From positions 1 to 62,277 of the forward strand of contig CAYYOI010000002.1 of assembly GCA_964473285.1 (NCBI GenBank): DNA of 62,277 nt. Reading direction: 5' to 3'. The position numbers were made by a program, and so were the translations under genes. The DNA comes from an uncultured Methanosarcinales archaeon (lineage in GTDB: Archaea > Nanobdellota > Nanobdellia > Woesearchaeales > JACJVW01). The notes under the pieces are model-generated. The model was not told the DNA's origin. It saw nothing but the letters and a program-made list of their open reading frames with translations, and searched no databases. Each line of letters starts with the position of its first letter. Position 1 is the stretch's first letter. Below, piece by piece: positions 1-62,178 of the stretch.

Positions 1-62
1 TGTTATCCTCCTGCAAGGCAGCACCATTTTCTTTTTAAGTATCGGAGATACTGTAGACACCG

Positions 63-75
63 ATATATTTTTAAA
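63..75 (+). promoter_or_regulatory. putative archaeal TATA box upstream of 5S rRNA
   Basis: AT-rich atatatttttaaa about 25-30 nt upstream of the predicted 5S 5' end. Positional argument only. Confidence 0.35.
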
Positions 76-92
76 GGAGAATGGATTTCCCT

Positions 93-212
93 GTATCAGA
101 CGGCCAGAGTGGTCAGGATATACCTGTTCCCATTTCGAACACAGCAGTCAAGCTGACCTACGTTTCCGATTGTACTGTACTTCAGTACGGGAACTCGGAA
201 AAGCCGTCACCC
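93..212 (+). rRNA. 5S ribosomal RNA (ends +/-6 nt)
   Basis: Universal 5S string cccatttcgaacacagcagtcaagc. Complementary arms: gacggc(99-104)/gccgtc(203-208) helix I; ggtcag(111-116)/ctgacc(153-158) helix II; tttccga(163-169)/tcggaaa(195-201) and gtactg(172-177)/cagtac(183-188) helices V/IV. Confidence 0.85.
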
Positions 213-230
213 TTTTCTCAAAATGGTAAG

Positions 231-242
231 TTTTTTATATAT
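231..242 (+). promoter_or_regulatory. putative TATA box for archaellin-like gene
   Basis: ttttttatatat lies about 25-30 nt upstream of ATG 264, implying a leaderless or near-leaderless mRNA. Confidence 0.4.
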
Positions 243-263
243 CTTTAGTTGATGTCCTTAGAT

Positions 264-1112
264 ATGGATAAAAAAGGCGAGACGGGGATTAGTGTTCTAT
301 TCGTGATTATTGGAAGCATTCTTATTGTTACAGCTGTTGTGGGATTGTATCTTGTCAGCACGGACAAACTGCAGACACAAGGGCTTAACATTGCAGACAA
401 GAGTGAAAGATCTGTATCAAACAAGTTAAAGCTGGATGATCTTTCATCAACCTATACAAGTGATTACATGCTAAAGGACATGGAGGCCCAATTGAGGCTT
501 GAGACTGGTTCAGATGGTGTCAAGCTTAGTGATATAGCATTAAGCATTAAGAGCCCTAACAGCACATCCAAGCTGGTATACAAAGGAGTGGGCTCATCAA
601 CAGAGCATGCATCTGACGGGTATTTCACCTTTGGCCATGAGACCTATGATGTCCCTGGCACTACACCAGAGGATTTTGACGAAGACAATGTGTCTGAGTC
701 ATTGACACGATCCGAAGGTTATGCCTGGCTTAACTTGAGCGGAGGGGATGATGTAAGACTTGGAGGGTGTACTGCGCCTGCAACATTCAACCCTGAACTT
801 GAGGAAAATGAATATGTCAAAGAGGTTACAGGGACTTGCGAGGATTCAAATGTCACTTCAGTGACTGTAACACCTTACAGGATAGGAGAGGGATATTTCA
901 CAGCACAATATCTCAAGAAAGGAGATCATCCATTGGAGAACATGATAACAAATGGTGATATATTCAAGATATATTTTGAGATGCAGGAGCCTCTTGATAT
1001 AGAACAGATAGTAACAATAAATGTGGTTACACAGTCAGGAGCGCAAACACCTGTCATGTTCATCACACCTGATACTCCTAAAGTTGGAAGGGTATCCTTG
1101 AGCCATTATTGA
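264..1112 (+). CDS. archaellin-like / type IV pilin-like surface protein
   Basis: Track ORF 249..1112 starts at TTG. ATG 264 gives MDKKG|ETGISVLFVIIGSILIVTAVVGLYLV (class III signal plus hydrophobic helix), then an archaellin-like LQTQGLNIADKSERSVSNKL segment. Confidence 0.55.
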   Translation: MDKKGETGISVLFVIIGSILIVTAVVGLYLVSTDKLQTQGLNIADKSERSVSNKLKLDDLSSTYTSDYMLKDMEAQLRLETGSDGVKLSDIALSIKSPNSTSKLVYKGVGSSTEHASDGYFTFGHETYDVPGTTPEDFDEDNVSESLTRSEGYAWLNLSGGDDVRLGGCTAPATFNPELEENEYVKEVTGTCEDSNVTSVTVTPYRIGEGYFTAQYLKKGDHPLENMITNGDIFKIYFEMQEPLDIEQIVTINVVTQSGAQTPVMFITPDTPKVGRVSLSHY

Positions 1113-2164
1113 AGTTCAAGAACTATTTTTTTATCTTTAAGATCAACATTAACTACAGAGGGATGTCTCTCCAGTGTTTCCTTGATCTCTGCCCATGAGC
1201 ATTCCTGACTATGGATGTCAGAGAGCAGTTTTGAGAGTTCCTGATAACGGTTATATATCATATGAGCCTTTGCCTGGTTTTCCTCAATCTTTTTTTCCAT
1301 GTCTTCTAATGCCTGTGCCTGGGAGTCTATTATACGTTGGAGTTTCTTTTGCGCTTTGGTCTGAGAGGTCTCTATCTGCTGGACTTCGGTTTCAAGGCGT
1401 TGTGCAAAGACAGTGTCAATTGCTTCATTGAAAGTAGGATACCGGGTAAAGTCAGAATGCTCTTGCAATGGAAAGGGATATATCTCATTATTCTTAAGAA
1501 CAACAGGGTCGGCAGGAGTCTGAATAAATTGCTGTACTGTGTCATAGACTTCTTTAGTATCTGACTGGTCCTTCAGACGGGAAACTATCTCCTGGGCATA
1601 GGTTCCTCCTAAACCGAATGTTACGGCAAGGGATTTTACGAGGTTATCTCCAAGATGTTCCCTGAACTGTTCGTATGAGAGATCCGGCAGAAATGGCCGT
1701 CGTTTAGGTGTCTGGTAAGGATTGCCTGGTTTCATGACCCTGTCTTTCCAGGCCTGGGCCTTGTGAAGGGAGATCATCCTGTAATCTTCGCATAGTATAA
1801 CGTTTCCTTTTCCAAAACACTCTATCATCATCTCATAGGTCGTGTCCTTTGTCTCAAAGGTAATCTTTACAATCCGTTCCATGCCGACCTGTTCGATATT
1901 CTCTACACGGGCATTTGTAAGGCGCTTTCGAAGGAACATGCAAAAGCCTTTGGGATGGCCTGTGTTTTCACGCTTTACTGTTGTCAGATAGAAAAGATTG
2001 GGAAGCAGGATGCGAAGCATTGCCTTACCCTTACCTGGAACATGAAGCCTTATGAGAAACTCATCCTGGAGAGGCTGAAATATCTTATCAACCTTGCCTC
2101 TAACAAGCCATTGCAGTTCTGATACAATATAGGATAATTCAAAGCCTGAGATCTGTTCTTTCAT
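1106..2164 (-). CDS. NFACT-N domain protein (FbpA/Rqc2/RqcH-like), short form
   Basis: N-terminus ISGFELSYIVSEL..GKVDKIFQP..EFLIRLH..LLPNLFYLT fits the NFACT-N pattern. The C-terminal half is a coiled coil. Only 352 aa. Confidence 0.6.
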   Translation of the reverse strand: MKEQISGFELSYIVSELQWLVRGKVDKIFQPLQDEFLIRLHVPGKGKAMLRILLPNLFYLTTVKRENTGHPKGFCMFLRKRLTNARVENIEQVGMERIVKITFETKDTTYEMMIECFGKGNVILCEDYRMISLHKAQAWKDRVMKPGNPYQTPKRRPFLPDLSYEQFREHLGDNLVKSLAVTFGLGGTYAQEIVSRLKDQSDTKEVYDTVQQFIQTPADPVVLKNNEIYPFPLQEHSDFTRYPTFNEAIDTVFAQRLETEVQQIETSQTKAQKKLQRIIDSQAQALEDMEKKIEENQAKAHMIYNRYQELSKLLSDIHSQECSWAEIKETLERHPSVVNVDLKDKKIVLELQ

Positions 2165-2264
2165 GGATTGGAGGGACCTGGTTTAATATATAAAGGCTCT
2201 GGACATTTTCACTTGATGGAGTAATACTCAAATTTAAATAGAAGATAAACCTAAAATAAATCCT

Positions 2265-3332
2265 ATGAAGGATAAGCTGAGAAAAACTTTCCTTGAACTG
2301 GTAAGCATAAGTGAAGTATACCCTAATGAAGACAAGATAATAGGATACATAGAGAGAAGGCTTGCTGATTCAGGGATTGCTTTCAAGCGTGACTCTTTCA
2401 ATAATATAATTGCGTGGGTAGAGGGCAGTGGTCGTTCAATTCTACTCAATACCCATATGGACATACCTGAACCTAACCCAAAACTTTCTGTTATCTCACA
2501 AGGAGATATCATCTCCAGTGATGGCAATACAATCCTTGGAGCAGACCCAAAATCAGGACTTGCAGTGCTTATTGAATTTCTTATCAAAATAAAAGAATCG
2601 AAAGACAATCATCATACAGTAGAAGCTGTTATTACAAGAGGAGAGGAAGCTGGACTAATAGGAGCAACAAATCTGGATTACAGCCTGATAAAATCAAAGA
2701 GAGGATTAGTACTTGATGAGGACGGACCTGTCAGCAGGGTAATAATAAAAGCCCCATGTGTGATAAAGCTTGATATAGAGATTAGAGGAAAGAAAGGACA
2801 TCCGAGAAATCCAAAAGAGGGTAAAAACGTATTACCGGCATTAGAAGAGATATTATATAAGATACCACCAGGGTATTCAAAAGAAGGCCTAACCTGGAAT
2901 ATTGGATTGATCAGTGCGGGATCGGCTAGAAATACTATCCCAGGGGAACTTAATATTGCTGCTGAATTACGAAGCTATAGCAAAGAAGATATTGAGTCAG
3001 GATATAAGAGGATACACAAGCAGTTCAAAGATTCATGTTCAAATCGTGGTCTTTCCCTGAAGATTCAAATAACACAGAGATATTATGGGTATTCAATCAG
3101 TAATGATAGTGAACTGATAAATGACATGAGAAAAACTTACAAAAAAATGGATATAATGCCTGGATTCTATAGTACTTTCGGAGGTTCAGATGCAAATATC
3201 TTCAACAATAAAGGGATACAAACTGTTCCAATCGGTTCTGCATACTATAACGCGCACCAACACCAAGAATATGTCAGGATGGATGATATGCAAAACATAA
3301 TGAAATTCCTGGAACTATTCTATGCTTTCTAA
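2265..3332 (+). CDS. M20/M42-type metallopeptidase
   Basis: Motifs NTHMDIPEP, GADPKSGLAV, TRGEEAGLIGA and FGGSDANIF, typical of dinuclear-zinc M20-family peptidases. Confidence 0.6.
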   Translation: MKDKLRKTFLELVSISEVYPNEDKIIGYIERRLADSGIAFKRDSFNNIIAWVEGSGRSILLNTHMDIPEPNPKLSVISQGDIISSDGNTILGADPKSGLAVLIEFLIKIKESKDNHHTVEAVITRGEEAGLIGATNLDYSLIKSKRGLVLDEDGPVSRVIIKAPCVIKLDIEIRGKKGHPRNPKEGKNVLPALEEILYKIPPGYSKEGLTWNIGLISAGSARNTIPGELNIAAELRSYSKEDIESGYKRIHKQFKDSCSNRGLSLKIQITQRYYGYSISNDSELINDMRKTYKKMDIMPGFYSTFGGSDANIFNNKGIQTVPIGSAYYNAHQHQEYVRMDDMQNIMKFLELFYAF

Positions 3333-3965
3333 TTCAGAGAGGACATGTATGATATTATCTGCCATGTGAAAAGAGTCAGATGGAAATGTATTGGTTATTG
3401 CTATTGCCTGCATCCCTGCTTTTCTTGCAGCAATGATTCCATTGACGGAGTCCTCAACTACCATGCACTGGGAATAGTCAATGCCAATGTCCTCGGCAGC
3501 TCTCATGAAAAGGTCTGGAGCAGGCTTACTGTTTTGTACCATTTCTGAATGGACTGCTGCATCAAAAAAGGACAGGAGATTGAAACGGGAATCTATATAC
3601 TCAAGCATTTCCTTTCGGGCAGAGGTTGCAAGGGCAAGCCTGTATCTTTTCTGAAGGCGGGATAGGACAAATTTGACCCTGGGAAACAACCTGATATCAT
3701 CCTGGTATTGGGCTTCATAAGCAATCTTTTCTGATATGATATTCTCAGGCGTATCCTGAAGACCGAAGTCCCCTATCAGCCGCATTGCTATCTGCTTTGA
3801 GGATGTGCCGTTGTATTTCTTGAATTCTTCCTTATTGAAGGAGAGATTGCGTTTATCAAAGATTGATTTCCATATTTTCATATGGACTGGCATTGAATCA
3901 ACCAAAACACCGTCCATGTCAAAGATTATTGCCTGCATACAGATTCTTTGGGTGAAGTCATTCAT
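3315..3965 (-). CDS. HAD-superfamily hydrolase (beta-phosphoglucomutase-like)
   Basis: IIFDMDGVLVDS (motif I DxDG), LATSA (motif II), K at NSKPAPD (motif III), VEDSVNG (motif IV). Confidence 0.8.
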   Translation of the reverse strand: MNDFTQRICMQAIIFDMDGVLVDSMPVHMKIWKSIFDKRNLSFNKEEFKKYNGTSSKQIAMRLIGDFGLQDTPENIISEKIAYEAQYQDDIRLFPRVKFVLSRLQKRYRLALATSARKEMLEYIDSRFNLLSFFDAAVHSEMVQNSKPAPDLFMRAAEDIGIDYSQCMVVEDSVNGIIAARKAGMQAIAITNTFPSDSFHMADNIIHVLSELESIE

Positions 3966-3970
3966 AAAAG

Positions 3971-5569
3971 TTATGATACGGTGACAGATTTTGCAAGATT
4001 CCTGGGTTTGTCAATAGGCAGTCCTTTCTTCAATGCTGCATGGTAACTCATCAGATGGCCCCTGATGGTTGAAAGGATCACATCCTCAAGTCTTGAGCAG
4101 GGAAGTTCCATAAGCTCACCGCCACGTGCGCGTACTTCAGAGTTTGTGTGTGGATCAGCAAGGCTTAATACCTGAAAACCTGATTCGACAAGTGCAAGGG
4201 GGCCGTGCTTGAGTTCACCTGCAATGACGGGTTCAGCATGAATATAGGTAACCTCTTTTAACTTGAGAGCAATCTCCCTTGCTACAGGGTAGAAGATGCC
4301 TTTGCCCAGGACAAAACAGCGCTCATCCACAAGGGGGATTGAAGTGTCATGTATAACCTGTTCGATCAGGTGGGGGATTCTATCAATATCAATTGAGAGC
4401 CCTAAAAGGCCTGCGATCCTGAAGAGCATAATCACTTGATTGGTGAAGGCTTTTGTGGATGCAACAGCTATCTCTGATCCTGCGCAGATATCAAGGGTTA
4501 CATCACTAATACGGTGAAGGGTGGAGGCAGGGACATTGACTATTGAGATGACACGGGCATTGGTGTTTTTTATGCATCGCAACAAGTCCATTGTCTCCCC
4601 GCTTTGTGAAAATGCTATGATAAGGTCAGGGTTTCCAGTGTATTCTGAGGCTATGTGAGCCTGGGCGTCCATTCCACACTGTCTAAAGAGATGCTCTCCT
4701 ATGAGTGCGGCATGATAACTGGTCCCGCATCCCAGTAATACAGTCTTATTATTTTTGATGAGATTTTTTGCATTGTGCAGTGCATCTTTTTGAGAGGGGA
4801 AACTATCGATCAGGTTCCTGGCAGTTCTTGGCTGTTCTTCAATCTCCTTTAGCATGTGATGCTCATAGTTTCGCTTATCATGAGTTGTATCATACATGCT
4901 GAATGATTCAGGCTTAGGCTGGAGTCGTTTACCCTGTTTGAAGACTTTTATATCTGAAGAGATCACAGCATAGGAATCATCTTCAAGAAATATTGCTGAA
5001 TCTGTCTTGTCAGAAAATGCGTGGATATCTGATGCTATGTAGATGGTGTTTCCTGATGTACCTATTGCAAGAGAGGAGTCCCGCTTCAGGCAATAGATTG
5101 TTCTTTCATGAAGAATCAAAATTGCAAATGTGCCATCTATCTCATCTAGGAATTTCTGGCAAATCTCTTGCATTGAAAGTGAGGATAAATGATAATCAAA
5201 ATAATGAACAATGAATTCTGAATCTGTATCTGAATAAAATATGTATCCCTTTTTTTCCAGTTCTTCCCTTTTGACATTGAGGATTCCGTTGTGAACTGCA
5301 AATACTGTCTTGCTCTTATTTGCATGAGGATGGGCATTATTTTCTGTTATGGTCCCATGGGTAGCCCAGCGGGTATGAGATATACCTCTTGTTGCACGTT
5401 CGTTTTTGATCTCTTCTCGAAGGTTATCTATCCCTCCAACAGTCTTTTCAAAGATTGAATCTGTAACAAGGCCTGCTGAGTCATAACCCCTGTATTCGAG
5501 CCTTTCTAAGCGATCAATCAATTCATTTACCTGGAAATCTCCGCTCATCCCCACTATTCCGCACATCAT
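3971..5569 (-). CDS. glmS: glutamine--fructose-6-phosphate aminotransferase
   Basis: N-terminal nucleophile MCGIVG, RWATHG, and SIS motifs GCGTSYHAA and SQSGET. Sits in a cluster with glmU-like and glmM. Confidence 0.9.
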   Translation of the reverse strand: MMCGIVGMSGDFQVNELIDRLERLEYRGYDSAGLVTDSIFEKTVGGIDNLREEIKNERATRGISHTRWATHGTITENNAHPHANKSKTVFAVHNGILNVKREELEKKGYIFYSDTDSEFIVHYFDYHLSSLSMQEICQKFLDEIDGTFAILILHERTIYCLKRDSSLAIGTSGNTIYIASDIHAFSDKTDSAIFLEDDSYAVISSDIKVFKQGKRLQPKPESFSMYDTTHDKRNYEHHMLKEIEEQPRTARNLIDSFPSQKDALHNAKNLIKNNKTVLLGCGTSYHAALIGEHLFRQCGMDAQAHIASEYTGNPDLIIAFSQSGETMDLLRCIKNTNARVISIVNVPASTLHRISDVTLDICAGSEIAVASTKAFTNQVIMLFRIAGLLGLSIDIDRIPHLIEQVIHDTSIPLVDERCFVLGKGIFYPVAREIALKLKEVTYIHAEPVIAGELKHGPLALVESGFQVLSLADPHTNSEVRARGGELMELPCSRLEDVILSTIRGHLMSYHAALKKGLPIDKPRNLAKSVTVS

Positions 5570-28087: not shown

Positions 28088-29017
28088 ATGCAAAGGAAAG
28101 TAATCCAGCTAGCGGGGAAGACACTGGTTGTGAGCCTGCCGAACAAATGGGTAAAGCAGTTCGGGATACAAAAAGGGGATGAGCTGGATATCCTTGAAGA
28201 AGATAACCAACTGGTGATCCGTAGCGGTATTAGGAGAGAAGAAAGTAAGAATATATTTATTGATATATCAGATAGTAAAGAGAGAATTATAAGGTGGACT
28301 CTCTCTGCACTTCATAAGAAAGGATATGATGAAATACAAGTTAAATTTGAACATATGGATAAACTACGAATACTTGAGGACCTAATACGGAACCGATTTA
28401 TTGGGTTTGCTATTGTTCATCAAACAGAATCACTCTGCATAATAAGAAACATAACGAAAGAAGCTGAGATGGAGTTTGATTCTATTTTAAGAAGAGGCTT
28501 CTTGGTCACCGAATCCCTGGCAGAAAGCACTTTGGATCTTATGAAAAGAAAGAAATTCAAAGAGATGTCTGAACTAGTTCAACTTGAAAAAACGAATAAT
28601 CAATTGACAAATTTTTGCGAAAGAATAATCAATAAAGGAAAATATCCTGTTGCTAAAGATAGCCATTTTATGTATGTCATTGCCTGGAATCTAGAGAAAG
28701 TAGCGGATGATTACAAGTATATATGTGAATACCTTAGCAGATTAGATAATCCTGTAATTGATCAACCTACAGTTGAAATATTTGAAAGAATAAACCACTA
28801 TTTCAAAGAATTTTATTATCTATTCTATAAATTTAAGATAGAAGAACTTAATGAACTGGATAAGAAAAGAAAGATAATCATTAAAGATATCATTGAAGTA
28901 TGTGAACATGCCAACAAAGAAAACACAGTAATCTTAAACTATCTTCTCAGTAATATCTACAAAATTGTTGATTTCCATGCCTCTACAATTGCGTTGAATA
29001 GTGAGCCTGAAGATTGA
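28088..29017 (+). CDS. AbrB/SpoVT-domain plus PhoU-like regulator
   Basis: N-terminus VIQLAGKTLVVSLPNKWVKQFGIQKGDELDI is an AbrB-type swapped-hairpin motif. The helical C-terminal region has PhoU-like repeats, an architecture common in archaea. Confidence 0.55.
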   Translation: MQRKVIQLAGKTLVVSLPNKWVKQFGIQKGDELDILEEDNQLVIRSGIRREESKNIFIDISDSKERIIRWTLSALHKKGYDEIQVKFEHMDKLRILEDLIRNRFIGFAIVHQTESLCIIRNITKEAEMEFDSILRRGFLVTESLAESTLDLMKRKKFKEMSELVQLEKTNNQLTNFCERIINKGKYPVAKDSHFMYVIAWNLEKVADDYKYICEYLSRLDNPVIDQPTVEIFERINHYFKEFYYLFYKFKIEELNELDKKRKIIIKDIIEVCEHANKENTVILNYLLSNIYKIVDFHASTIALNSEPED

Positions 29018-30941
29018 AAAGCCCGTGTTTCAATTCATCAATAGAATATCTTTCAGTTCCACTGTAATGTAAGTAAAAATCTCTAAGATTATCCTGCATA
29101 TATTCAATAGATTCAATTGCCTGGGAAATAACATGCACCCTTCGCGGATGGAGTTCTGATCGATTACCAGTAGACCAGGCTGATGTCAAAGAGAGGGCAC
29201 GTTGGAATACAGCCCCACAATAAGCAAAAAGGCTTTCTTCTTCGTTTATATCCTCCTCTAATTTTTGGTAAGCTAATTTTACATAATGGAATTGTTTTTC
29301 AAGTGATATTTCTCCAGTATATATAAGTAAATTTGCAAGGTTGAAGGAAAAGGGAACAGAAGCATTTTTTTCGTTATCGAGTTTTGTCATTACACCATCA
29401 TTTCGAACAAAAAGATTTTCAGGGTGATAATCGAAATTGACTTTTGTAGGGCTGGTTTCTAAGTATCTCCATATAGGTTTTCCGTTTTCCGTAATTTCCT
29501 CCAATGTTTTCTTATCAATCTCTGATTGAATAAGATTAAGTTTTGTCTTATTTCTATAATCAACTTGAGGTGCAGAAATATCAACATTTTTCCAAAGGTA
29601 TGCAAGTAGATCTACGGCTTTCTCGAAATATTCAGGTAAGGAAGGGTCTTCGTCGAGAATCTTTTTTTCCAAAGTCTCACCTTCAAGGTTCTCCAAAACA
29701 AGAACAGGCTGCTCAAAATCTGATTGGCTATGCACTAAGGTTGTTAAGGGTATTGGTACATCATAGTCAGTTTTGCGAAGAAGATCGCCCAAGTATTTAG
29801 TGAATTCAAACTCCTCCTCGACAGCCTCCTGGGACCTACACTCCTTGAAGAGCCATTGTTTTTCTCCTTTGATAAAATACATCCCGTTCTTTGTCTGTCC
29901 TATTCGTTCTAGGTTCTCTCCTTCAAAATAATTCTTTTTTACAAGAGGATATAAGAGCTCCAAGGTTTTATTTCGTAAATTAATTACCTTATTATAGCAG
30001 GATGTCAGTGTTGCCACATTATCTGCCAAGTTTATCATATATAAGAACCGCTCCTGATAATAATTAGCTTTTCCCTTGATTCTCTGGAAATATTTATCAG
30101 GTTCTTTTAATAGGACTGGTTCGGCAAAGGTATCGATAAACTCCCTGGCTACTCGCTCATCAAGCATCTTTTCGTAATATGTAATGAAATTACCACCACC
30201 AACTAATGCAGCATTAAAAAGATGCTGTGACTCAAGAATCTCGTCAGGATTATATCTAACTTGCACAGAAGTTTTTGCAAAGTGGAACATGAGACGTTCT
30301 TTAAGAACAGGGGATTCCAATCCATTCAATTTTGCCTCTACCCAGATTGAGGAAAAACTGGAAAGGGCTTGCCTGTACATGGGAAGCGTAATAGTTTCAG
30401 GATTTTTTCGGATCTTTCTATGATACAGGTTGACGATTGGAAATTGCGCGTCAAGATACTTGTACCTTTCCGAAAGGTCTTTTAATAACTGCATCTTTTT
30501 AGGAAGGTCAGATCTTGCAGCTTGAAGATAAGTTTTAGATATATCCAGAAAAGACTTGACAGAGAATTTATAACTGGTTTTTTTACGTTCACGCTTCCGG
30601 GAGATTTCAGATCTAAATGGAAGATTATACATCCTGTTATAAAGAATAGATAGTGTGCATGCGCCCATAGCCACAAAGCCATATGTGAAAATTTCAGTTA
30701 TGGCAAAACCAAAATAGTCATAGGATTCCAAAAAATCCTGAATCTTTGGGTTTGCGCACAAATCCGTAACCCAAGGCTTTTCCAAGAAGGCCTCGCCACC
30801 ATATTTTATGAAGTCAGGTGCGTCATATCTGGTTATATCAAAAAGATTGAATTCTCCTTGTTTGTGAGCCTGATACTCTGTGTATGTATAGTATCCAAGG
30901 GAGGCAAGCAGAAAATTAAACCAATTAAAATGCTTTAGCAT
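28983..30941 (-). CDS. membrane-associated protein with C-terminal APH/choline-kinase-like phosphotransferase domain
   Basis: Hydrophobic N-terminal segments. The C-terminal NFDYHPENLFVRNDG..KLDNE resembles the HxDxxxxN catalytic loop and DxD/N metal site of the protein-kinase-like fold. Confidence 0.45.
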   Translation of the reverse strand: MLKHFNWFNFLLASLGYYTYTEYQAHKQGEFNLFDITRYDAPDFIKYGGEAFLEKPWVTDLCANPKIQDFLESYDYFGFAITEIFTYGFVAMGACTLSILYNRMYNLPFRSEISRKRERKKTSYKFSVKSFLDISKTYLQAARSDLPKKMQLLKDLSERYKYLDAQFPIVNLYHRKIRKNPETITLPMYRQALSSFSSIWVEAKLNGLESPVLKERLMFHFAKTSVQVRYNPDEILESQHLFNAALVGGGNFITYYEKMLDERVAREFIDTFAEPVLLKEPDKYFQRIKGKANYYQERFLYMINLADNVATLTSCYNKVINLRNKTLELLYPLVKKNYFEGENLERIGQTKNGMYFIKGEKQWLFKECRSQEAVEEEFEFTKYLGDLLRKTDYDVPIPLTTLVHSQSDFEQPVLVLENLEGETLEKKILDEDPSLPEYFEKAVDLLAYLWKNVDISAPQVDYRNKTKLNLIQSEIDKKTLEEITENGKPIWRYLETSPTKVNFDYHPENLFVRNDGVMTKLDNEKNASVPFSFNLANLLIYTGEISLEKQFHYVKLAYQKLEEDINEEESLFAYCGAVFQRALSLTSAWSTGNRSELHPRRVHVISQAIESIEYMQDNLRDFYLHYSGTERYSIDELKHGLFNLQAHYSTQL

Positions 30942-54850: not shown

Positions 54851-54875
54851 AAATACCAAAAAATACTTGCTTACC

Positions 54876-55706
54876 ATGAATCAAATAAGAACTGTATTAT
54901 TACTCGGTCTATTAAGCGGATTGTTGCTTCTAGTTGGCCAACTTGTAGGAGGGGCTTCAGGACTTACCATCGCACTGATATTGGCTGTAGCCATGAACTT
55001 TGGGAGTTACTGGTTCTCAGACAAAATTGTCCTTAAGATGTATAAGGCACAAAAAGTGGATGAGAAAACCCATCCTCAACTCTATAAAATGGTGCGTGAG
55101 GTGGCACACAGGGCAACCCTTCCCATGCCAAAAGTCTATGTAATACCAAGCCAAAACCCGAATGCCTTTGCTACTGGAAGGAATCTAAAACATGCGGCTG
55201 TGGCATTCACAAAGGGAATAATGGATCTATTGGACAAGGAAGAACTGAAAGGAGTGATTGCCCATGAGATGTCACATGTGCGAAACAGGGATATACTAAT
55301 CTCATCCATCGCTGCGACCCTTGCTGCGGTGATTTCCTATGTTGCAATGATGGCAAGATGGGCAGCAATATTTGGGGGTTTTCGAGATGATGACAATCCA
55401 CTGGAATTCATTGTCCTTGCATTAATGGCACCCATAATTGCTTTCCTGATCCAGATGGGGATTTCCAGAAGCAGGGAGTATCAGGCTGATGCAAGTGCAA
55501 AGCATATCCTGAACTCAGGTGAAGGGCTTGCACGAGCTCTTGGAAAACTGCATAATCAAAGCAAGAGGGTGCCCATGGATTTCGGATCAGAAAGCGGAGC
55601 AAGCCTTTTTATTGTAAATCCTTTCAAAGCAAGAAGTCTGATGAATCTTTTCAGCACACATCCTCCTATAGAAGAGCGAATCAGGCGCCTTCGTATGGCT
55701 CATTGA
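54876..55706 (+). CDS. htpX: protease HtpX (M48 zinc metalloprotease)
   Basis: HEMSHV zinc motif, 4 TM helices, C-terminal FSTHPPIEERI. ATG 54876 is preferred over track TTG 54867. Confidence 0.9.
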   Translation: MNQIRTVLLLGLLSGLLLLVGQLVGGASGLTIALILAVAMNFGSYWFSDKIVLKMYKAQKVDEKTHPQLYKMVREVAHRATLPMPKVYVIPSQNPNAFATGRNLKHAAVAFTKGIMDLLDKEELKGVIAHEMSHVRNRDILISSIAATLAAVISYVAMMARWAAIFGGFRDDDNPLEFIVLALMAPIIAFLIQMGISRSREYQADASAKHILNSGEGLARALGKLHNQSKRVPMDFGSESGASLFIVNPFKARSLMNLFSTHPPIEERIRRLRMAH

Positions 55707-57870
55707 AAAGGTCTGATATCTTCTTTGCTATAACAGGACCTACTTTGTTTACTTTCTTTAGTTCATCCTCGGAAGCATTGGCAATATTTCGGATGGTTGA
55801 GAAATAAGTAAGCAGATCTTTTGCAAGCAGGCCACCAACTCCAGGAAGGGAAGAGACGAGATGCTCCTGCTGCTCTTTGGTGGTTAGTGGTTTGCGGTCA
55901 GCTGAAGGTGTGAATTCATTGGATTCGGCCTGCTCACGTTTTGCGACTATGAAAAGGAGGTCTGCGGTCTCCTGGCTTGTCCTGGTGTAGAGAACAGGAA
56001 TTCCAAAACTTACAGTGATTGTTGCAAGCATGCCTTTGATTGCATTAGGATGGACATTCCTGAGTGAATAAAGATCCTGATTTCCTTCTACAATTATAAG
56101 AGGACGGGGGTAACTATTTTTCAAATCCTTGACCTGGGATAAAAGCCTTCCATCTACTATTGAATCCACAAAATCAGGAGCGGTCTTGTACTCTACTCCA
56201 ACTCTTTGTGAGAGGATGTAGTCTGCAATCTCCAGCTTTTCAAGCTGCATCTTTGTGCCGCTGTCAATCAGATTCTTGATCACTGGAGAGCCTTTCTCAC
56301 GGTAATCAGCAATTATATTTACATTGTCTTTTACATATTCAGCAAGGCTCTCCTGGGGCTTGAAATTCATGTTCTTTTTCAGATCTTTCAGGGCGCTGTA
56401 CATGCGCTTCTCCTTGTGCTTGGCAGACCAACGATAGGTTACATCTCTTGTGTTCTTTGCTATAAGAACATAGACAGCTCCTTTCTCCTGCCTGCCTGTC
56501 CTTCCCCTTCTCTGGACATGACGGATTACAGATGGAACAGGTTCAAAGAAGATTACCTGATCAACCTTTGGAATGTCAAGGCCTTCTTCTCCTACAGAGG
56601 TCATGACAATTGTATTGAATTTTCCTTCCCGGAAATCATCCAGCATCTCAATCTGTTTTTTTTGGGAGAGGCCGGTCCCTGCTTTTTTTTGCTGGCCTAC
56701 AAAAACCTGAGGTATGATCCCTTCCACTTCAGAGAGTGCATCAGATACTTGTTTTGCTGTGTCCCTATACTGGGTGAATACTATAAGCTTTGCTTTAGGG
56801 TTTTGCCGGAGAAGAGAAAGGGTCAGGTTCTTCAATTCAGCAAACTTGGGGTGTTCAATCCCATCCTCTATAAGGCTTTCCACAAGAATATAGGCAGACT
56901 TCCAGTTACCGTCACAGGCCAGATTCTGGACTGCTTTCACTTTTGTGGACCTTGCCTCTTTCATCACACGATCCATATAACTATAAAGGGATTTGACACC
57001 TTGGGATTCCAGGAGCTCGATTGCGTGATATATTTTCATGGCTTCTGCCACTAGAGAGAGGGATCTTAATATTGGGAAATCCTTGTTTCCCTGATTCATC
57101 TCACCTACCAATTGGCCCTGGACACCCAAGAGCTCTCTTTTTGATACGTTCTGGACAGAGTTAATAAAGCCATTTTCCTTTATGAGTGAGAGCTTATCTT
57201 TTAGAGCGGCCTCAAGGTATAGCTTGCAATCAAGAAATCTTTTGGGAAGGTCCACCTCTCGATATGATATGTCAATCTCCTGGACATATGGTTTCACATC
57301 CTCATCATCATATGTGCGAATCTCAATATCCTCGATATGAAGGTTTTCACAGACCTCTTTTATCTTCTCCTGATCTCCACCTGGAGAGGCAGTCAGTGCA
57401 AGAATACGGGGGTAACGGGCAGTACGGGAGTACATCTTTGCAATCCAGACATAAGAATAATCTCCCACTGCACGATGAGCTTCATCAACTCCAAGCAAAG
57501 AGACATCCTTGAGATCGATGCGACTGGAGATTATGTCATTTTCCAGCCCCTGTGGTGTACTGAAGATGATATTTGCTTCCTGCCAGGATTCTGAACGCTT
57601 TTTAGGAGAAATATTACCTGTGAATATAGCCATCTTTTCTTCAAGTATGTCAAAATTCTCTTTGAAAACATCATAATACTGGTGAATCAGGGGCCTGGTA
57701 GGGCCTATAAAAAGGATTTTTGATCCAGGGTGCTGCCTGAGGCGCTGGGCTGCCACCATGAGAAAAATATTGGTCTTTCCAAGACCTGTTGGAAGGACTA
57801 CCAAGGTGTTTTTTAAAGCGCAGGTAGAAAAGATGGTCTCCTGGTAGAGACGAGGGGTGAAATTGATCAT
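55681..57870 (-). CDS. hef: Hef (FANCM/XPF-family helicase-nuclease)
   Basis: N-terminal SF2 helicase (PTGLGKT, DEAH, TASPG, QRRGRTGR); ERCC4 nuclease region (DYRE..ADYIL..VEYKTAPDFVDSIVDGRL, with ERK as EYK); C-terminal HhH2 (LPGVGGLLAKDLL..VNKVGPVIAKKI). Minus-strand tatataaa lies about 30 nt upstream. Confidence 0.88.
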   Translation of the reverse strand: MINFTPRLYQETIFSTCALKNTLVVLPTGLGKTNIFLMVAAQRLRQHPGSKILFIGPTRPLIHQYYDVFKENFDILEEKMAIFTGNISPKKRSESWQEANIIFSTPQGLENDIISSRIDLKDVSLLGVDEAHRAVGDYSYVWIAKMYSRTARYPRILALTASPGGDQEKIKEVCENLHIEDIEIRTYDDEDVKPYVQEIDISYREVDLPKRFLDCKLYLEAALKDKLSLIKENGFINSVQNVSKRELLGVQGQLVGEMNQGNKDFPILRSLSLVAEAMKIYHAIELLESQGVKSLYSYMDRVMKEARSTKVKAVQNLACDGNWKSAYILVESLIEDGIEHPKFAELKNLTLSLLRQNPKAKLIVFTQYRDTAKQVSDALSEVEGIIPQVFVGQQKKAGTGLSQKKQIEMLDDFREGKFNTIVMTSVGEEGLDIPKVDQVIFFEPVPSVIRHVQRRGRTGRQEKGAVYVLIAKNTRDVTYRWSAKHKEKRMYSALKDLKKNMNFKPQESLAEYVKDNVNIIADYREKGSPVIKNLIDSGTKMQLEKLEIADYILSQRVGVEYKTAPDFVDSIVDGRLLSQVKDLKNSYPRPLIIVEGNQDLYSLRNVHPNAIKGMLATITVSFGIPVLYTRTSQETADLLFIVAKREQAESNEFTPSADRKPLTTKEQQEHLVSSLPGVGGLLAKDLLTYFSTIRNIANASEDELKKVNKVGPVIAKKISDLFNEPYEGA

Positions 57871-57989: not shown

Positions 57990-58012
57990 GAGAGAGGCCT
58001 TCTTTGGGGAGC

Positions 58013-58507
58013 ATGAAGATTAATGAGAAGGATTATATTGTTGAAACCGATGCAGAAGCCATAGCACACGGATGTAATGCTAAGGGCGTCATGGGAAAGG
58101 GGGCTGCATTTGGGATAAGTCGTTTCTACAGTATTGATATGTACCTAGATTATAAAAATAAATGTGAATTAGGATTCTTCAAACCAGGAGGGGTTTATTC
58201 CTATGAGGAATCAGGAAAACCAATACTTTACAATCTTGGAATCCAGAATAAGCCAGGTAAAAATGCAAAGATGCATCATATATCTGGCTGTCTGGAAAAA
58301 CTTGCAAAAAATATGGAAGAGAAAGGGATCTCATTTCTTGCAATAACACCTTTGGGGTGTCATAATGGTGGCCTTAATATGGAAGAAGTGCTTGATAGTA
58401 TAGGATACCATCTTTCAGGTTTTGATGTTACTGTATATACTGCTAAAGACCAGATACCATTGAATCTTCCTGAAACCCCGCATAATGTAATCAGAGTCTT
58501 CTTCTAG
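58013..58507 (+). CDS. macrodomain protein (ADP-ribose binding/hydrolase fold)
   Basis: DAEAIAHGCNAKGVMGKGAAFGI (N..GxGxG loop) and ITPLGCHNGGLNMEEV (second Gly-rich loop). ATG 58013 is preferred over track TTG 58004. Confidence 0.65.
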   Translation: MKINEKDYIVETDAEAIAHGCNAKGVMGKGAAFGISRFYSIDMYLDYKNKCELGFFKPGGVYSYEESGKPILYNLGIQNKPGKNAKMHHISGCLEKLAKNMEEKGISFLAITPLGCHNGGLNMEEVLDSIGYHLSGFDVTVYTAKDQIPLNLPETPHNVIRVFF

Positions 58508-60896
58508 CCATGCCATGCCATTTTGCTGCATATGCTTCATTTATCTCCTGCTGATATGCTGTAGCATAATCATCTATTGAAAAGACTCTTGCTGGCAAAT
58601 CTTGCACAAGCTCTTTTATATGGGGTAGCATCTTGTTGAAACAAAAGATCTTGTTTATATAAGATACTGGGATAGGCTTATCTATTACTAAATCCCGTGT
58701 AAGTTTATTCTGATGAATCAGCTGTTCTTCAGAAGCCAATATCCCTCCTAACAGTATGCGGTTCCACATGATCTTTTGATATAAGGAAGGCAAAAGCTCA
58801 ATCACAATGCTATCTTTTGTAGCATAATTTGATATGAGGGTATAGAAGTTTTCCTTTGCATTAAAAGGGGGGGGAGCGCCAAGAAAAGTAAGCCATTTCA
58901 TCTCCCTTTTGAAAAATTTTGTGCGGACCCCATGGAAATCATGAGGTTTTGATTCGATCCTTCTTAAGTCTGTCTCTTTCATTTCCTTTATCCTGGATGC
59001 AATCTCTTCTTTTTTTTGATTATACAAAGGATCCTTTGGGTTGAGGGATTGGATCTTTTTGTTATATGCCTTCAGAAGTAAAGGGGATAGAAAGCCATTA
59101 TCAAGAATAAGCCTGAAAGAATCAAATGATGTCAAATGATAATAGCAAAGAGGTATATTTCCCTCGAGAATGGCCTGGATCTCATTAAGGTTCAACCTTA
59201 CACCAAAACTTCTTAGGAAAACCTCTTCTGAAGAGTCTTTCAGATGATCGAGGGAGATATGAGTGTGTTTCTTTTGTTTTTCTGTTTCTTCTTTCATCTT
59301 CTGCAAGATATCTTCTTTTGGAGGGAATTCTATGATTTTCCCTTGTACTGAAAAAAAGTGATCGAAAGTGATATTAGTAATCCTGGTCAAAAGCTTAGGA
59401 TATATTTTTGATTCCTGCTTTCCCAACCTGAAAACCTCAAGCAATGACTTGTACAGGAACTCGTTTTTCAGGAATAGGCTCATCCTGGGAAGGATACATT
59501 CAGTAAACAGGTTCCCATTACTCCTGAAATGATCCTTTCCGCAAATCCGGATAAGATCAATTATATCCCTTAACCCATATTTAATGATCAAAGGAAGAAT
59601 CCTTTCTAGCTTTTGCATGATAAAAACAAAATTTGAGGAGGTAACCAATTTGAGATTATTAAGTTCATTAAGGCCTCTCTTTAGGATGAAAGGTTCAAAG
59701 CTCACTAATAATTTTATGGTCTTGACCCTGTCCTTGTTGAAACCAATTATTTGGAAGACCTCATCCCAATGTTTTACGCAATAGAGCATAAGTCGCTGAT
59801 GGCCGAAAGGCAAATATTCCTGAAATATCATGTGTATGACAAATTTCTTCTCATCATAAGAGGAATCCGGAAAGGCCAAGGATATGATGCGACTATATTC
59901 AAGGGAGATTGCCTGAATCTTTTCCAGCTCAGAAGCACCAATCTTTACTTTTCCTGACAAAAAAGCACCATTCTTCTTGACTGCATAAATGTCTGCTTCA
60001 GTGATGATCTTTAGGAGGTGAAAGTATACTTTGTGCTTAAGGTTAGAAATAAGGTGTTCTATATATTGACCCTTATCTTTTGTATCTATCTTAAAAACAA
60101 GGTCACCAAGGACATCATGGTAATATACAAGTTTTGAGACTATGTCAATAATATAATCAGGGTATCCCATCTCTTCCATGCGTGACTTGCATATCAGGGC
60201 TGAATTCACAGGGTGCTTTGGATCATTAGTCTTAGGCCTCTTATGCTTATTCCCTCCCTGTTTTCCAATATCATGAAACAGAATTGCCAAAGACACTATT
60301 TTCCTGTATGTTGCATGCAAGTTAAGAAATTCATTTTTCTGCTGAAGATAAGATAAAGCAATAAAGGTATGCTCATCAATCCTAAAAGAATGAGTCCTGT
60401 GAGGCCACCCTGTTTCATCACTTCTTAGTCTTTTCCATTCTGGTATGAAACCATCAAATACACCTAAACTGCTGAGGGTTCTTATCTCACTTATCTTATT
60501 ATAGGAATTCTCGATAATTGACTTAAATTCTTCTAATGTTATTTCAGGCTTATTCTTGAAGTATCTGCACTCAAAAACAGCGTCAGGATTTCTTTCCCTC
60601 TCTTCTACTGCTTTTGGAGCCACACCTGCAATCCCTTTTATATTGCCTTCGATAAATCTTATATTCTCCACATTATTATCTTTTGGATTATAATTCAGAA
60701 TATGATCAATAAACTTGAGAACCAATTCCTCATAATTGTTCCTGATACCCATACCCCATAATTCATCAAATACTTCTTTTGCTTCTTTCTTAAAGGATTC
60801 AACATCCTTATTTATCCCCCAGAATTTCTTGTGACGCGAGAAAGAATCAGTCAAATTATTTACCAGTTCTTCATATCTTTTCTTGTCGTATCTCAT
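58491..60896 (-). CDS. HD-domain protein with C-terminal DarT/PARP-like ADP-ribosyltransferase-like region (tentative)
   Basis: HD motifs HRTHSFRIDEH, LAILFHDIGKQ and YYHDVLGD (GlnD-type). C-terminal 596-790: CYYHLTSFDSFRLILDNGFLSP, DFHGVRTKFF, ENFYTLIS, ASEEQLIH. ATG 60896 abuts the upstream stop; the track start is 60941. Confidence 0.5.
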   Translation of the reverse strand: MRYDKKRYEELVNNLTDSFSRHKKFWGINKDVESFKKEAKEVFDELWGMGIRNNYEELVLKFIDHILNYNPKDNNVENIRFIEGNIKGIAGVAPKAVEERERNPDAVFECRYFKNKPEITLEEFKSIIENSYNKISEIRTLSSLGVFDGFIPEWKRLRSDETGWPHRTHSFRIDEHTFIALSYLQQKNEFLNLHATYRKIVSLAILFHDIGKQGGNKHKRPKTNDPKHPVNSALICKSRMEEMGYPDYIIDIVSKLVYYHDVLGDLVFKIDTKDKGQYIEHLISNLKHKVYFHLLKIITEADIYAVKKNGAFLSGKVKIGASELEKIQAISLEYSRIISLAFPDSSYDEKKFVIHMIFQEYLPFGHQRLMLYCVKHWDEVFQIIGFNKDRVKTIKLLVSFEPFILKRGLNELNNLKLVTSSNFVFIMQKLERILPLIIKYGLRDIIDLIRICGKDHFRSNGNLFTECILPRMSLFLKNEFLYKSLLEVFRLGKQESKIYPKLLTRITNITFDHFFSVQGKIIEFPPKEDILQKMKEETEKQKKHTHISLDHLKDSSEEVFLRSFGVRLNLNEIQAILEGNIPLCYYHLTSFDSFRLILDNGFLSPLLLKAYNKKIQSLNPKDPLYNQKKEEIASRIKEMKETDLRRIESKPHDFHGVRTKFFKREMKWLTFLGAPPPFNAKENFYTLISNYATKDSIVIELLPSLYQKIMWNRILLGGILASEEQLIHQNKLTRDLVIDKPIPVSYINKIFCFNKMLPHIKELVQDLPARVFSIDDYATAYQQEINEAYAAKWHGMARRRL

Positions 60897-60897
60897 C

Positions 60898-61455
60898 TTA
60901 ATAGTCGTGACCTGGGCACAGGATTGCATTAGAATAGGCATTCAGTTTTTTTATAGACTCCTGCATCGCTTTTACATCAGAGGTTGGAAGATCTGTCCTT
61001 CCAAGTATCCCTTTTCCAAAAAGGGTATCACCAGAGAAGAGAATGTTTTTTGTCTTGTGGTAATAGCAAACACTACCACGAGTATGGCCAGGGGTTGGGA
61101 TGACTATGATGTCACCCATATCAGAAACAGGAAACAATTTCTTTTGCTGCAGCATATCAATCTCAGGGTTCCTGAATACTGAATAAAAAGGATTTTTCTG
61201 GAAGTCTTCAATTGCCTCTTTTGAGGCATGGATTGTTGCTTGAGGGAATGCATCCAATGCCCCAAGATGATCATAGTGCAGATGGGTGAGAAGTATGTGT
61301 TTAATCTTGTCTTTATCAATTATCTGACTTATCTTGCGCAGTAGTTCTTCCTTTTCTTCGCGGACTCCTGCATCTATCATTTTTGGCTCTTCATCTATGA
61401 TAAGATAAGCATTTGATTGGCCTGAAAATTTGTATATGTTTTTTGTTATCTCCAT
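60898..61455 (-). CDS. MBL-fold metallo-hydrolase
   Basis: LLTHLHYDHLG (HxHxDH), TPGHTRGS, CPGHD. Confidence 0.85.
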   Translation of the reverse strand: MEITKNIYKFSGQSNAYLIIDEEPKMIDAGVREEKEELLRKISQIIDKDKIKHILLTHLHYDHLGALDAFPQATIHASKEAIEDFQKNPFYSVFRNPEIDMLQQKKLFPVSDMGDIIVIPTPGHTRGSVCYYHKTKNILFSGDTLFGKGILGRTDLPTSDVKAMQESIKKLNAYSNAILCPGHDY

Positions 61456-61458
61456 TTT

Positions 61459-62178
61459 TCATTCGAAATACATGTAGTAGAGTAGCCATACTGCAATTGC
61501 GCCGGTGAGGGCTATAAGATAAGAGTATACATCAAAATATGCAAGGATTGCGTAAAGGATTATGAAACTTGTTACAAACATGTAGATCAGCCTTGAATCA
61601 TACATGACCTTGCTTCCATCAAGGGGTGGAATGGGAAGCATGCTATATGCGGCAAATGCCAGGTTGAAAAGAAAAATCTTATCCACAACCAAAGAAGGAA
61701 GAAAACCAATCATACCTAGCGATTTTACACCTGTTGCAAAAAGGACATTGAACAAGGGTCCTGCTGCTGATACAAGAGCAAGTGTCCTTATGTTTGTACC
61801 ATAACGGAACTCACCAAGACGTTGTATCTTCATATGATGAAGGATTATCCCCCCTGGAATCAAGATCCAGACAGTACCACCACTCAGAAGGGTGATTGCC
61901 AGACTGACGATAATACCATACCACCAGAGCTTGTACTCTACCCGAAAACCATAGTGTATGCCTACTAAGCGATAACCTGCCTGCTTTACCAGAACAGAAA
62001 CCACTACGATTGCAGTCATCAGGAACAGGTTAGAAAGCCATGGGCCTAACTGAAACTCAGGGCGCCCGTCATTGAGAGCGACAATTATTACCAGGAAAAG
62101 GATTGTCAATAATATGGCTCTTACTTCTGCTGGATTGAAGATTCCGTATCGCTTTAGGTTCTCAAGAAAATTGTTCAT
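61459..62178 (-). CDS. M50 (site-2 protease)-like membrane protein with degenerate active site
   Basis: Multi-TM protein. NLAFAAYSMLPIPPLDGSKV matches the M50 NxxPxxPLDG motif, but the HExxH position reads VKQAGYRLV. Minus-strand tatttaaag lies about 27 nt upstream of the ATG. Confidence 0.6.
   Translation of the reverse strand: MNNFLENLKRYGIFNPAEVRAILLTILFLVIIVALNDGRPEFQLGPWLSNLFLMTAIVVVSVLVKQAGYRLVGIHYGFRVEYKLWWYGIIVSLAITLLSGGTVWILIPGGIILHHMKIQRLGEFRYGTNIRTLALVSAAGPLFNVLFATGVKSLGMIGFLPSLVVDKIFLFNLAFAAYSMLPIPPLDGSKVMYDSRLIYMFVTSFIILYAILAYFDVYSYLIALTGAIAVWLLYYMYFE

Follow-up and report, generated by a model that had tools for sequence, protein, structure and literature searches.

A candidate DarTG-like ADP-ribosylation pair with a fused HD phosphohydrolase domain in a woesearchaeal genome

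The stretch of DNA analysed here (hereafter the window: 62,277 nucleotides (nt), positions 1 to 62,277 of contig CAYYOI010000002.1, assembly GCA_964473285.1, from an uncultured archaeon placed by GTDB in the Woesearchaeales) contains a small macrodomain gene that meets, tail to tail, a gene for an 801-residue protein with an HD domain and a C-terminal domain predicted to adopt the ADP-ribosyltransferase (ART) fold. DarTG is a toxin-antitoxin (TA) and anti-phage system in which DarT2, a DUF4433 (PF14487) protein, ADP-ribosylates thymidine in single-stranded DNA and DarG is the macrodomain antitoxin. We favour, with moderate confidence, the reading that the two genes form a writer and an eraser of ADP-ribosylation, a divergent archaeal counterpart of DarTG in which the writer is fused to an HD phosphohydrolase. 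As in DarTG, a predicted ART-fold writer stands beside a DarG-clade macrodomain eraser, and the best PDB matches of the former are structures of DarT, with Tpt1 interleaved among them. The pairing of an ART with a DarG-type macrodomain follows a logic that is already known; the ART family itself and its fusion to an HD domain appear undescribed, as an earlier note made from the letters of the sequence alone had supposed, in that no family model, annotation or paper was found and a literature search on archaeal or HD-fused DarT returned nothing relevant.

The macrodomain gene lies on the forward strand at 58013..58507 and encodes 164 amino acids (aa); its open reading frame (ORF) begins at 58004 or 58013, and database entries start at the ATG at 58013. 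The large gene lies on the reverse strand at 58491..60896 (801 aa, stop included). The earlier note had given this ORF both a start at 60896 and a longer form reaching 60941, and had numbered the latter as an 816-aa protein. The ORF stands and the 816-aa form does not, because a methionine equivalent to that of ATG 60896 opens the orthologs P0002 (87% identity), P0003 (51%) and P0014 (37%), and because this ATG is separated by only 1 nt from the metallo-beta-lactamase (MBL) fold gene upstream. Residue numbers below follow the 801-aa form, and those of the earlier note are higher by 15. All on the reverse strand, the protein comprises an N-terminal region (residues 1-120, 60537..60896) that is predicted to be helical in a low-confidence model, is poorly conserved in P0014 and has no detected relatives; the HD phosphohydrolase domain (residues ~121-340, 59877..60536), found by Pfam, NCBIfam and PDB matches; a middle region (residues ~341-560, 59217..59876), predicted to be all-helical, again in a low-confidence model, with no homologs detected beyond the four full-length proteins; and the C-terminal ART-fold domain (residues ~561-801, 58494..59216), delimited by AlphaFold2 (AF2) and Foldseek, hhalign and the family alignment. 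An AF2 model of the full-length protein was unusable (predicted local distance difference test (pLDDT) 44, predicted template modelling score (pTM) 0.26).

Both genes are real, with purifying selection on every domain. Compared with the 87%-identical ortholog, the ratio of nonsynonymous to synonymous substitution rates (dN/dS) was 0.13 for the whole 801-aa gene and 0.19 for the macrodomain gene, and by domain it was 0.14 for the N-terminal region, 0.15 for the HD domain, 0.12 for the middle region and 0.10 for the ART domain.

The macrodomain and the HD domain

Both macrodomain loop motifs, 'HGCNAKGVMGKGAAFGI' and 'ITPLGCHNGGLNMEEV', are present in the 164-aa protein where the earlier note had placed them, as are the HD motifs and C-terminal strings of the large protein quoted below, and its assignment of the macrodomain to the DarG type was borne out. 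The Pfam Macro model matched at a borderline 21.9 bits (cutoff 22), and the DarG models of PADLOC and NCBIfam matched at 5.2e-25 and 6.5e-21, respectively, the NCBIfam match spanning model positions 8-151 of 338, which is the macro half only (75 bits, where the full-length cutoff is 250). A profile of four macro sequences searched against the PDB retrieved the DarG macrodomains of Thermus aquaticus and Mycobacterium tuberculosis at about 1e-17 (DarG macro entries 5m31 at 7.6e-18 and 5m3i at 1.1e-17), along with the Thermosipho DarTG fusion (1e-6) and human TARG1 (1.5e-5); the Appr-1''-p phosphatase Poa1 was reached only at E 0.3, and SCO6735 gave no direct sequence match at E<=1. Per these matches, the protein is a DarG-clade macrodomain. 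A tblastn search of plasmids with it returned 107 records, and a DUF4433/DarT gene was directly adjacent in all six of the closest records that were opened; the plasmid DarG homologs are 303-362 aa long, against 164 aa here. The ADP-ribose-binding residues are kept, namely N22 (58076-58078) and N118-G119-G120 (58364-58372), which match N22 and G119 of T. aquaticus DarG, and the DarG loop 'GAGNGGL' reads 'GCHNGGL'.

The HD domain carries the motifs RIDEH, LFHDIGK and YYHD, and the earlier note's description of it as GlnD-type held up, in the sense of the domain shared by GlnD and CCA-adding enzymes, with the metal ligands intact. Pfam HD (PF01966) matched at 22.9 bits (cutoff 22), NCBIfam GlnD matched residues 135-322 at 9.6e-14 and the CCA nucleotidyltransferase model at 2.8e-5, and the best PDB match was an Aquifex class II tRNA nucleotidyltransferase (A-adding enzyme, 1.6e-8); a weak similarity to Cas3-type HD nucleases was also seen (PADLOC, 1.4e-5). 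The domain is of the type that adjoins Pol-beta nucleotidyltransferases, with ~190 residues of similarity to GlnD and class II tRNA nucleotidyltransferases that include the H...HD...H...H...D ligands. Since the full set of metal ligands (H176, H208-D209, H228, H260 and D302) is invariant in the four full-length proteins, the domain is probably an active phosphohydrolase. Identity of the 801-aa protein with GlnD itself was rejected: the match is confined to the HD region and reaches 50.6 bits where the cutoff is 519, and unlike GlnD and the tRNA nucleotidyltransferases the protein has no nucleotidyltransferase, GlnD_UR_UTase or ACT domain, an ART domain being fused instead.

The C-terminal domain compared with DarT and Tpt1

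The C-terminal domain belongs to a small family. An exhaustive HMMER search of 1.84e9 representative sequences recovered only nine family proteins, consisting of the HD-fused orthologs, the 799-aa homolog P0014 (37% identity), the fragment P0015 and six remote proteins (P0016-P0021), and P0021 was the sole addition made by a third, word-index search of sequences. A scan of GTDB species representatives for the family found only the two known metagenome-assembled genomes (MAGs), and two metagenome scans found nothing full-length, the second giving only generic GlnD-like HD relatives. The remote proteins lack the HD domain, have coiled-coil-like N-termini and carry a helical insert of 150-300 residues that splits the ART core; the remaining members are referred to as the compact clade. 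When hidden Markov models (HMMs) were searched with the C-terminal domain of three and of 11 family members, no DarT-family model was hit even at E<=10. A PDB sequence-profile search and a local DarT HMM likewise returned nothing, and the single weak Pfam match among the 11 members was to Tpt1/PTS_2-RNA (PF01885), in one remote member, at E 0.072.

The strings 'CYYHLTSFDSFRLILDNGFLSP', HDFHGVRTKFF, ENFYTLIS, ILASEEQLIH and 'IPVSYINKIFCF' are all present, and the core motifs of the domain read PLCYYH587LT..LIL..G.L.P, KW668LTFLGAPPPF..E682.F, VIE700LLP.LY..I.W711, KLTRD735LVI and P..Y..KIF. In the family alignment of 11 sequences (A4), P605, W668, P677, E682, F684, E700, P703, Y706, W711 and D735 are invariant, G579, P582, Y585, Y586, H587, F671 and A674 are near-invariant, and K667 is near-conserved only, as K, Q or R. 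H587 (codon 59136-59138), the histidine of 'YYH.T' on beta1 and of the [H-Y-E] triad, is the sole near-invariant His in the family and occurs in all ten sequences that cover the position; the earlier note had proposed this residue, as H602, for a conservation check, and it is conserved across the family. The catalytic residues that it had proposed, E738/E739 in its numbering (E723/E724 here, 58725-58730), fared otherwise: they fall in a variable, gapped region of the alignment, the first being kept within the compact clade only. The candidates for the catalytic acid, as judged from the alignment, are instead either the invariant D735 (58692-58694; D750 in the earlier numbering), which aligns to DarT E160, or the invariant E700 (58797-58799).

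An AF2 model of the C-terminal domain built from A4 (pLDDT 77.3, pTM 0.75) was compared with known structures by Foldseek. Seven PDB entries stood above noise, with probabilities of 0.75-0.96 and the next match at E 1.6: four Thermus DarT structures, M. tuberculosis DarT, the Thermosipho DarTG and yeast Tpt1. DarT takes ranks 1-5 and 7 (probability 0.75-0.95), and Tpt1 (7yw4) is interleaved with them at a probability of 0.96 and with the best template modelling score on the target (TMt), 0.54. A search against viral structures yielded only uncharacterised proteins at E>=0.018. We would regard the Foldseek result as fold-level evidence only.

Profile alignments with hhalign were made against a DarT profile (A6) from six annotated plasmid DarTs and a profile of three Tpt1 sequences taken from the PDB, with 150 column shuffles per DarT block as nulls (shuffle mean ~10, standard deviation ~2). 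The N-terminal block 'PLCYYHLTSFDSFRLILDNGFLSP' aligned onto DarT 'IYHFTHKDNIVSIIKSNGIFS' with a score of 21.2 (P 0.002, z ~5), and the C-terminal block 'YQKIMW...KLTRDLVIDKPIPVSYINKIFCF...' onto DarT 'LNQIDW...RRQAEFLVKDFFPFQLVHKIGVF...' with a score of 23.3 (P 0.002, z 6.7); the two matches are colinear, and each lies above 150 of 150 shuffles. In this register the catalytic E160 of DarT falls on D735, in 'KLTRDLVI' immediately before the 'IPVSYINKIFCF' strand, and 'IDW' falls on W711, while E700 ('VIELLP') sits on the strand preceding D735. The match of the 'IPVSYINKIFCF' strand to the late strand of DarT, as the earlier note had drawn it, was right in this alignment. Against Tpt1, the N-terminal block scored higher than against DarT (27.1, P 1e-4, z 9.2) and likewise exceeded every shuffle, and the core aligned over the whole NAD lobe (28.8, z 6.8), with 'VIELLPSLY' (E700) on the last strand, 'VWLIDFVPAEF'; the C-terminal block reached only 16.4, in the wrong lobe, and has no true counterpart there; the C-terminal ~75 residues are matched by DarT only.

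Taken together, these comparisons place the C-terminal domain among the ARTs of the DarT/Tpt1 branch. Like DarT, it opens with Y-H-x-T ... I-L-x-x-G-x-L at identical spacing, and its 'I.W ... acidic strand ... P..h..I' is colinear with DarT 'IDW ... QAEFLV ... P..L..I'. The opening motif, which the earlier note had read as a signature of DarT, is generic to the branch, as it is common to Tpt1/KptA and scores higher there; the C-terminal third of the domain reads as DarT-like. The earlier note's view of a DarT-like C-terminus holds, then, for the ART fold and for DarT as the top structural matches, and not for a closer relationship to DarT than to Tpt1. Unlike DarT, the protein is invisible to DUF4433/DarT HMMs and is archaeal (from the DPANN group), its ART is joined, at the C-terminal end of 801 aa, to two helical regions and an HD domain, and a helical insert stands between beta2 and beta3. 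Membership of the DarT family is not established, Tpt1 being about equally close, and we do not file the domain as DarT because the canonical features are kept only in part: the His is present, the Tyr gives way to Leu or Phe and the Glu to Asp, and no Arg is invariant.

The closeness to Tpt1 raises an alternative that we consider unlikely while taking it seriously, namely that the pair is a Tpt1/KptA-like RNA-end processing module that places ADP-ribose onto a 2'-phosphate or terminal phosphate of RNA (or DNA) in a repair or housekeeping role rather than as a TA system, and in which the macrodomain would remove a 1''-phosphate or an ADP-ribose cap. CCA-adding enzymes carry HD domains that act as 2',3'-cyclic phosphodiesterases and phosphatases, and the HD domain here is of the tRNA nucleotidyltransferase-associated type; the pair lies in a housekeeping neighbourhood in the window. 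The domain shares with Tpt1 the ART-fold NAD+ lobe, including 'P..(L/Y)YHGT...IL..G', which fits better than the DarT motif, and a 'VIELLP.LY' that resembles the last Tpt1 strand 'VWLIDFVP.EF', and to these can be added the Tpt1 Foldseek and hhalign matches given above and the weak PTS_2-RNA match of one remote member. In addition, KptA, 2H and Macro proteins form an established RNA-repair network (PMC9503650), and a 2H/LigT gene directly precedes the remote member P0021, so that an association with macro and phosphoesterase functions is a further likeness. However, Tpt1 is defined by an Arg-His-Arg-Arg tetrad (PMC10622864), and identity with Tpt1/KptA was rejected as this tetrad and the N-terminal RNA-binding lobe are absent, with only a short hairpin and helix upstream of the ART core and with no invariant Arg in the family. 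Moreover, the C-terminal ~90 residues, which include the invariant W711 and D735, are additional to Tpt1 and align to DarT; the macrodomain partner is DarG-type (1e-17) and not Poa1-type (E 0.3); the distribution is extremely sporadic, unlike that of a repair enzyme; and the 2H association is one case in a different clade.

With regard to the remote clade, its loci (L005-L011 and L038) have archaeal-looking contexts with TBP, fibrillarin/Nop and Pelota, and small upstream genes recur, encoding CutA1 (P0016) and a DUF7560-like protein (P0017). On the 2.6-kb contig of L004, the single case of its kind, the 2H/LigT phosphoesterase gene (26..565, forward strand) is followed after a 36-nt gap by P0021 (602..2533, forward strand), an order that may point to chemistry on ADP-ribose cyclic phosphate or on RNA ends in the remote clade.

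Gene linkage and genomic setting

In a local HMM scan, the macrodomain gene adjoins the ART gene in five of five compact-clade loci; the same scan at remote-clade loci, hidden macro genes included, found it in none of seven. The macro clade was found solely beside the HD-ART protein family, and the co-occurrence that the earlier note had named as a check holds wherever the compact clade was found, an unrelated neighbourhood included. The window locus is syntenic with L001 and L002, all three having the two genes convergent, with a 17-nt overlap in the window and a 1-nt gap without overlap in L002. In L003 the genes are likewise convergent, with a 23-nt overlap, in an unrelated neighbourhood of AbiEii TA, AAA_14/DUF4143 and PolB genes that lacks Hef, MBL and M50; in L037, a 1.1-kb contig, they are co-directional and the macro start overlaps the ART stop. 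Within a few kb of the pair in L003 are genes for an AbiEii nucleotidyltransferase toxin, which is preceded by a small partner, and for an AAA_14/DUF4143 ATPase (1603..2870, reverse strand, and 3885..5162, forward strand), a setting that resembles a variable or defence region. Unlike the genes of DarTG, those of the present pair are mostly convergent and not co-transcribed.

The stop codon positions confirmed that the two convergent genes of the window overlap by 17 nt at their 3' ends (58491..58507), with TAG at 58505-58507 on the forward strand for the macrodomain gene and TGA on the reverse strand for the 801-aa gene ('tca' at 58491-58493). Because five of the eight convergent pairs of long ORFs in the window share 7-35 nt in the same manner (249..1112/1106..2164, 2265..3332/3315..3965, 28088..29017/28983..30941, 54867..55706/55681..57870, in which HtpX and Hef overlap by 26 nt, and 58013..58507/58491..60896), the overlap is genome compaction, a general habit of this genome and no specific regulatory device. 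The antisense coupling that had been suggested for it is a weak idea and was rejected as a conserved feature, given that L002 has no overlap, that the genes of L037 are co-directional and that overlaps are common in the genome.

Upstream of the 801-aa gene, and tightly packed with it, lie an MBL-fold hydrolase gene (60898..61455, reverse strand; Pfam) and, in the same tight operon, a gene for an M50-like membrane protein (61459..62178, reverse strand; Pfam 20.6 against a cutoff of 27.2). The M50-like protein lacks HExxH, the site reading 'KQAGY', and keeps a C-terminal 'PPLDG'. The operon that the earlier note had described is present, though it is confined to the three syntenic close relatives (window, L001 and L002); due to the absence of the MBL and M50-like genes from L003, they were rejected as parts of the module. 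On the other side, the divergent neighbour of the macrodomain gene encodes a full-length Hef-type helicase/ERCC4 nuclease/HhH2 protein (55681..57870, reverse strand). The 142-nt intergenic region between the two is AT-rich with TATA-like elements, and the adjacency to Hef is kept in L002 and not in L003.

The proteins of the window have their best matches in Woesearchaeota/Nanobdellota MAGs, and archaeal-type neighbours include the Hef helicase-nuclease, HtpX and 5S rRNA, the gene for the last (96..212, forward strand; 64.6 bits) representing the sole Rfam family over its gathering score in the window. The GC content of 58001..62000 is 0.374-0.381, against 0.424-0.428 in the flanking 54-58 kb. 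Comparably low values recur elsewhere in the window, such as 0.340 at 28-30 kb, so this is no clear evidence of horizontal acquisition.

Readings of the pair and their significance

The mechanism that we infer for the writer and eraser would run as follows. The ART domain would bind NAD+ through the beta1 'YYH.T' histidine and, using an invariant acid (D735 or E700), would move ADP-ribose to a nucleic-acid target, which is proposed because both of the nearest relatives, DarT and Tpt1, act on nucleic acids. The 164-aa DarG-clade macrodomain would take the ADP-ribose off, probably by the Gln-type mechanism of SCO6735, and would in this way serve as a purely enzymatic antidote to a toxic partner. 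The HD phosphohydrolase may process the nucleotide adduct or a by-product, or it may be a second effector or a regulatory module. That the pair is sporadically distributed and portable suggests a TA or defence-like role over a housekeeping one.

Several observations weigh against this reading. The C-terminal domain has no significant match to a DarT, ART or Tpt1 family HMM in Pfam, NCBIfam or PADLOC; its Foldseek E values are only 5e-3 to 3e-2, with template modelling scores of 0.3-0.4 (0.54 on the Tpt1 chain), the pLDDT of the model falls to ~60 in the catalytic-strand region, and the hhalign probabilities are low (3-58%). At the level of residues, and unlike DarT, the position of the catalytic Glu (E160 in DarT2, E152 in DarT1) holds an Asp, D735; the position of Y71 on the 'PFYF' strand is taken by L672 in the HD-fused clade and by Phe in the remote members; and no Arg is invariant in A4, leaving DarT R51/R52, which contacts the NAD beta-phosphate, with no invariant counterpart. 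As for the Tyr, DarT1 likewise lacks that of [H-Y-E] (PMC11543638). The macrodomain, unlike DarG, lacks the catalytic Lys, with Gln78 (58244-58246) at the position of DarG K80 and TARG1 K84, and at 164 aa is a macrodomain only, devoid of the C-terminal DarT-binding domain of DarG (~340-360 aa in full). Finally, only five instances of the pair were found, of which three are closely related and syntenic, and its surroundings in the window are housekeeping genes, with no obvious defence island.

Neither the missing Lys nor the missing C-terminal domain would in itself preclude an antidote function, because a macrodomain alone is enough to rescue DarT toxicity (PMC5179494) and because SCO6735, with Gln85 at the same catalytic position, is an active hydrolase of thymidine-linked ADP-ribose on DNA (dT-ADPr-DNA) that protects from DarT, its Q85A mutant being dead (PMC9411070). 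Gln78 is invariant in five sequences, and its register agrees in the alignments to DarG and to TARG1. The activity of SCO6735 makes the K-to-Q state compatible with activity here; this Streptomyces coelicolor protein, of the ALC1-like class, likewise consists of a macrodomain on its own and has Gln at the K80/K84 position. The archaeal protein differs from it in being nearer to the DarG macrodomain and in keeping a 'G.GNGGL'-type loop ('GCHNGGL').

The same departures from H-Y-E and the same missing Lys would fit a different arrangement, which we think less probable still than the Tpt1-like one, in which the ART-like domain is an NAD+/ADP-ribose-binding or NADase sensor that controls the HD domain as effector (e.g., a nuclease or nucleotide hydrolase) and the macrodomain degrades an ADP-ribose-derived ligand; the full conservation of the HD ligands and the weak Cas3-type similarity are in keeping with it. 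On the other hand, the ART domain has the lowest dN/dS among the domains and several invariant acidic and aromatic residues that look like an active site, the remote clade has the ART core with no HD domain, which implies that the ART works alone, and a Gln-type macrodomain of the same class is an active hydrolase (PMC9411070).

The ART and HD domains could conceivably act in sequence on one substrate: the ART would ADP-ribosylate a nucleic acid or a protein, and the HD phosphodiesterase would next cut the pyrophosphate or phosphodiester of the ADP-ribose, so that a phosphoribosyl mark or cross-link resistant to the macrodomain is left, with the macrodomain as gatekeeper on the ADP-ribose intermediate only; we offer this as a speculative and improbable reading. 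The SidE effectors of Legionella join a mono-ART and a phosphodiesterase in one polypeptide and convert an ADP-ribose adduct to a phosphoribosyl linkage, with an ART of the R-S-E type. The resemblance, an ART and a phosphodiester-cleaving domain in one chain, is an architectural analogy only: unlike in SidE, the ART is of a different clade, and the HD profile search of the PDB matched only the tRNA nucleotidyltransferase HD domain and not the SidE phosphodiesterase. If true, the sequential reading would represent a novel two-step nucleic-acid modification chemistry in archaea.

Lastly, that the two genes are mere neighbours in a compact genome with no functional link is hardly credible, for although three of the five instances come from close relatives that share the gene order, convergent overlaps abound in the genome and the macrodomain gene also adjoins Hef in the window and in L002, the pair is kept both in the unrelated neighbourhood of L003 and in the changed orientation of L037 with its stop/start overlap, the macro clade occurs solely beside this protein family, and the partners are biochemically complementary.

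DarT enzymes are already in use as DNA-editing tools (PMC13368585). A divergent enzyme whose base-recognition residues differ could thus be specific for another target. If the prediction of a DarTG-like writer and eraser holds, the macrodomain would be a second, independent Gln-type hydrolase of the DarG class after SCO6735, and the natural ART-HD fusion may reveal, through its HD domain, further processing of ADP-ribose adducts or by-products. The ART domain would likewise represent a new, HMM-invisible ART family that bridges DarT and Tpt1 and bears on the divergence of DNA-directed and RNA-directed ARTs. DPANN archaea are host-dependent, with minimal genomes, and their conflict systems are little known; on the same prediction, reversible ADP-ribosylation of nucleic acids of the DarTG type would extend to these organisms.

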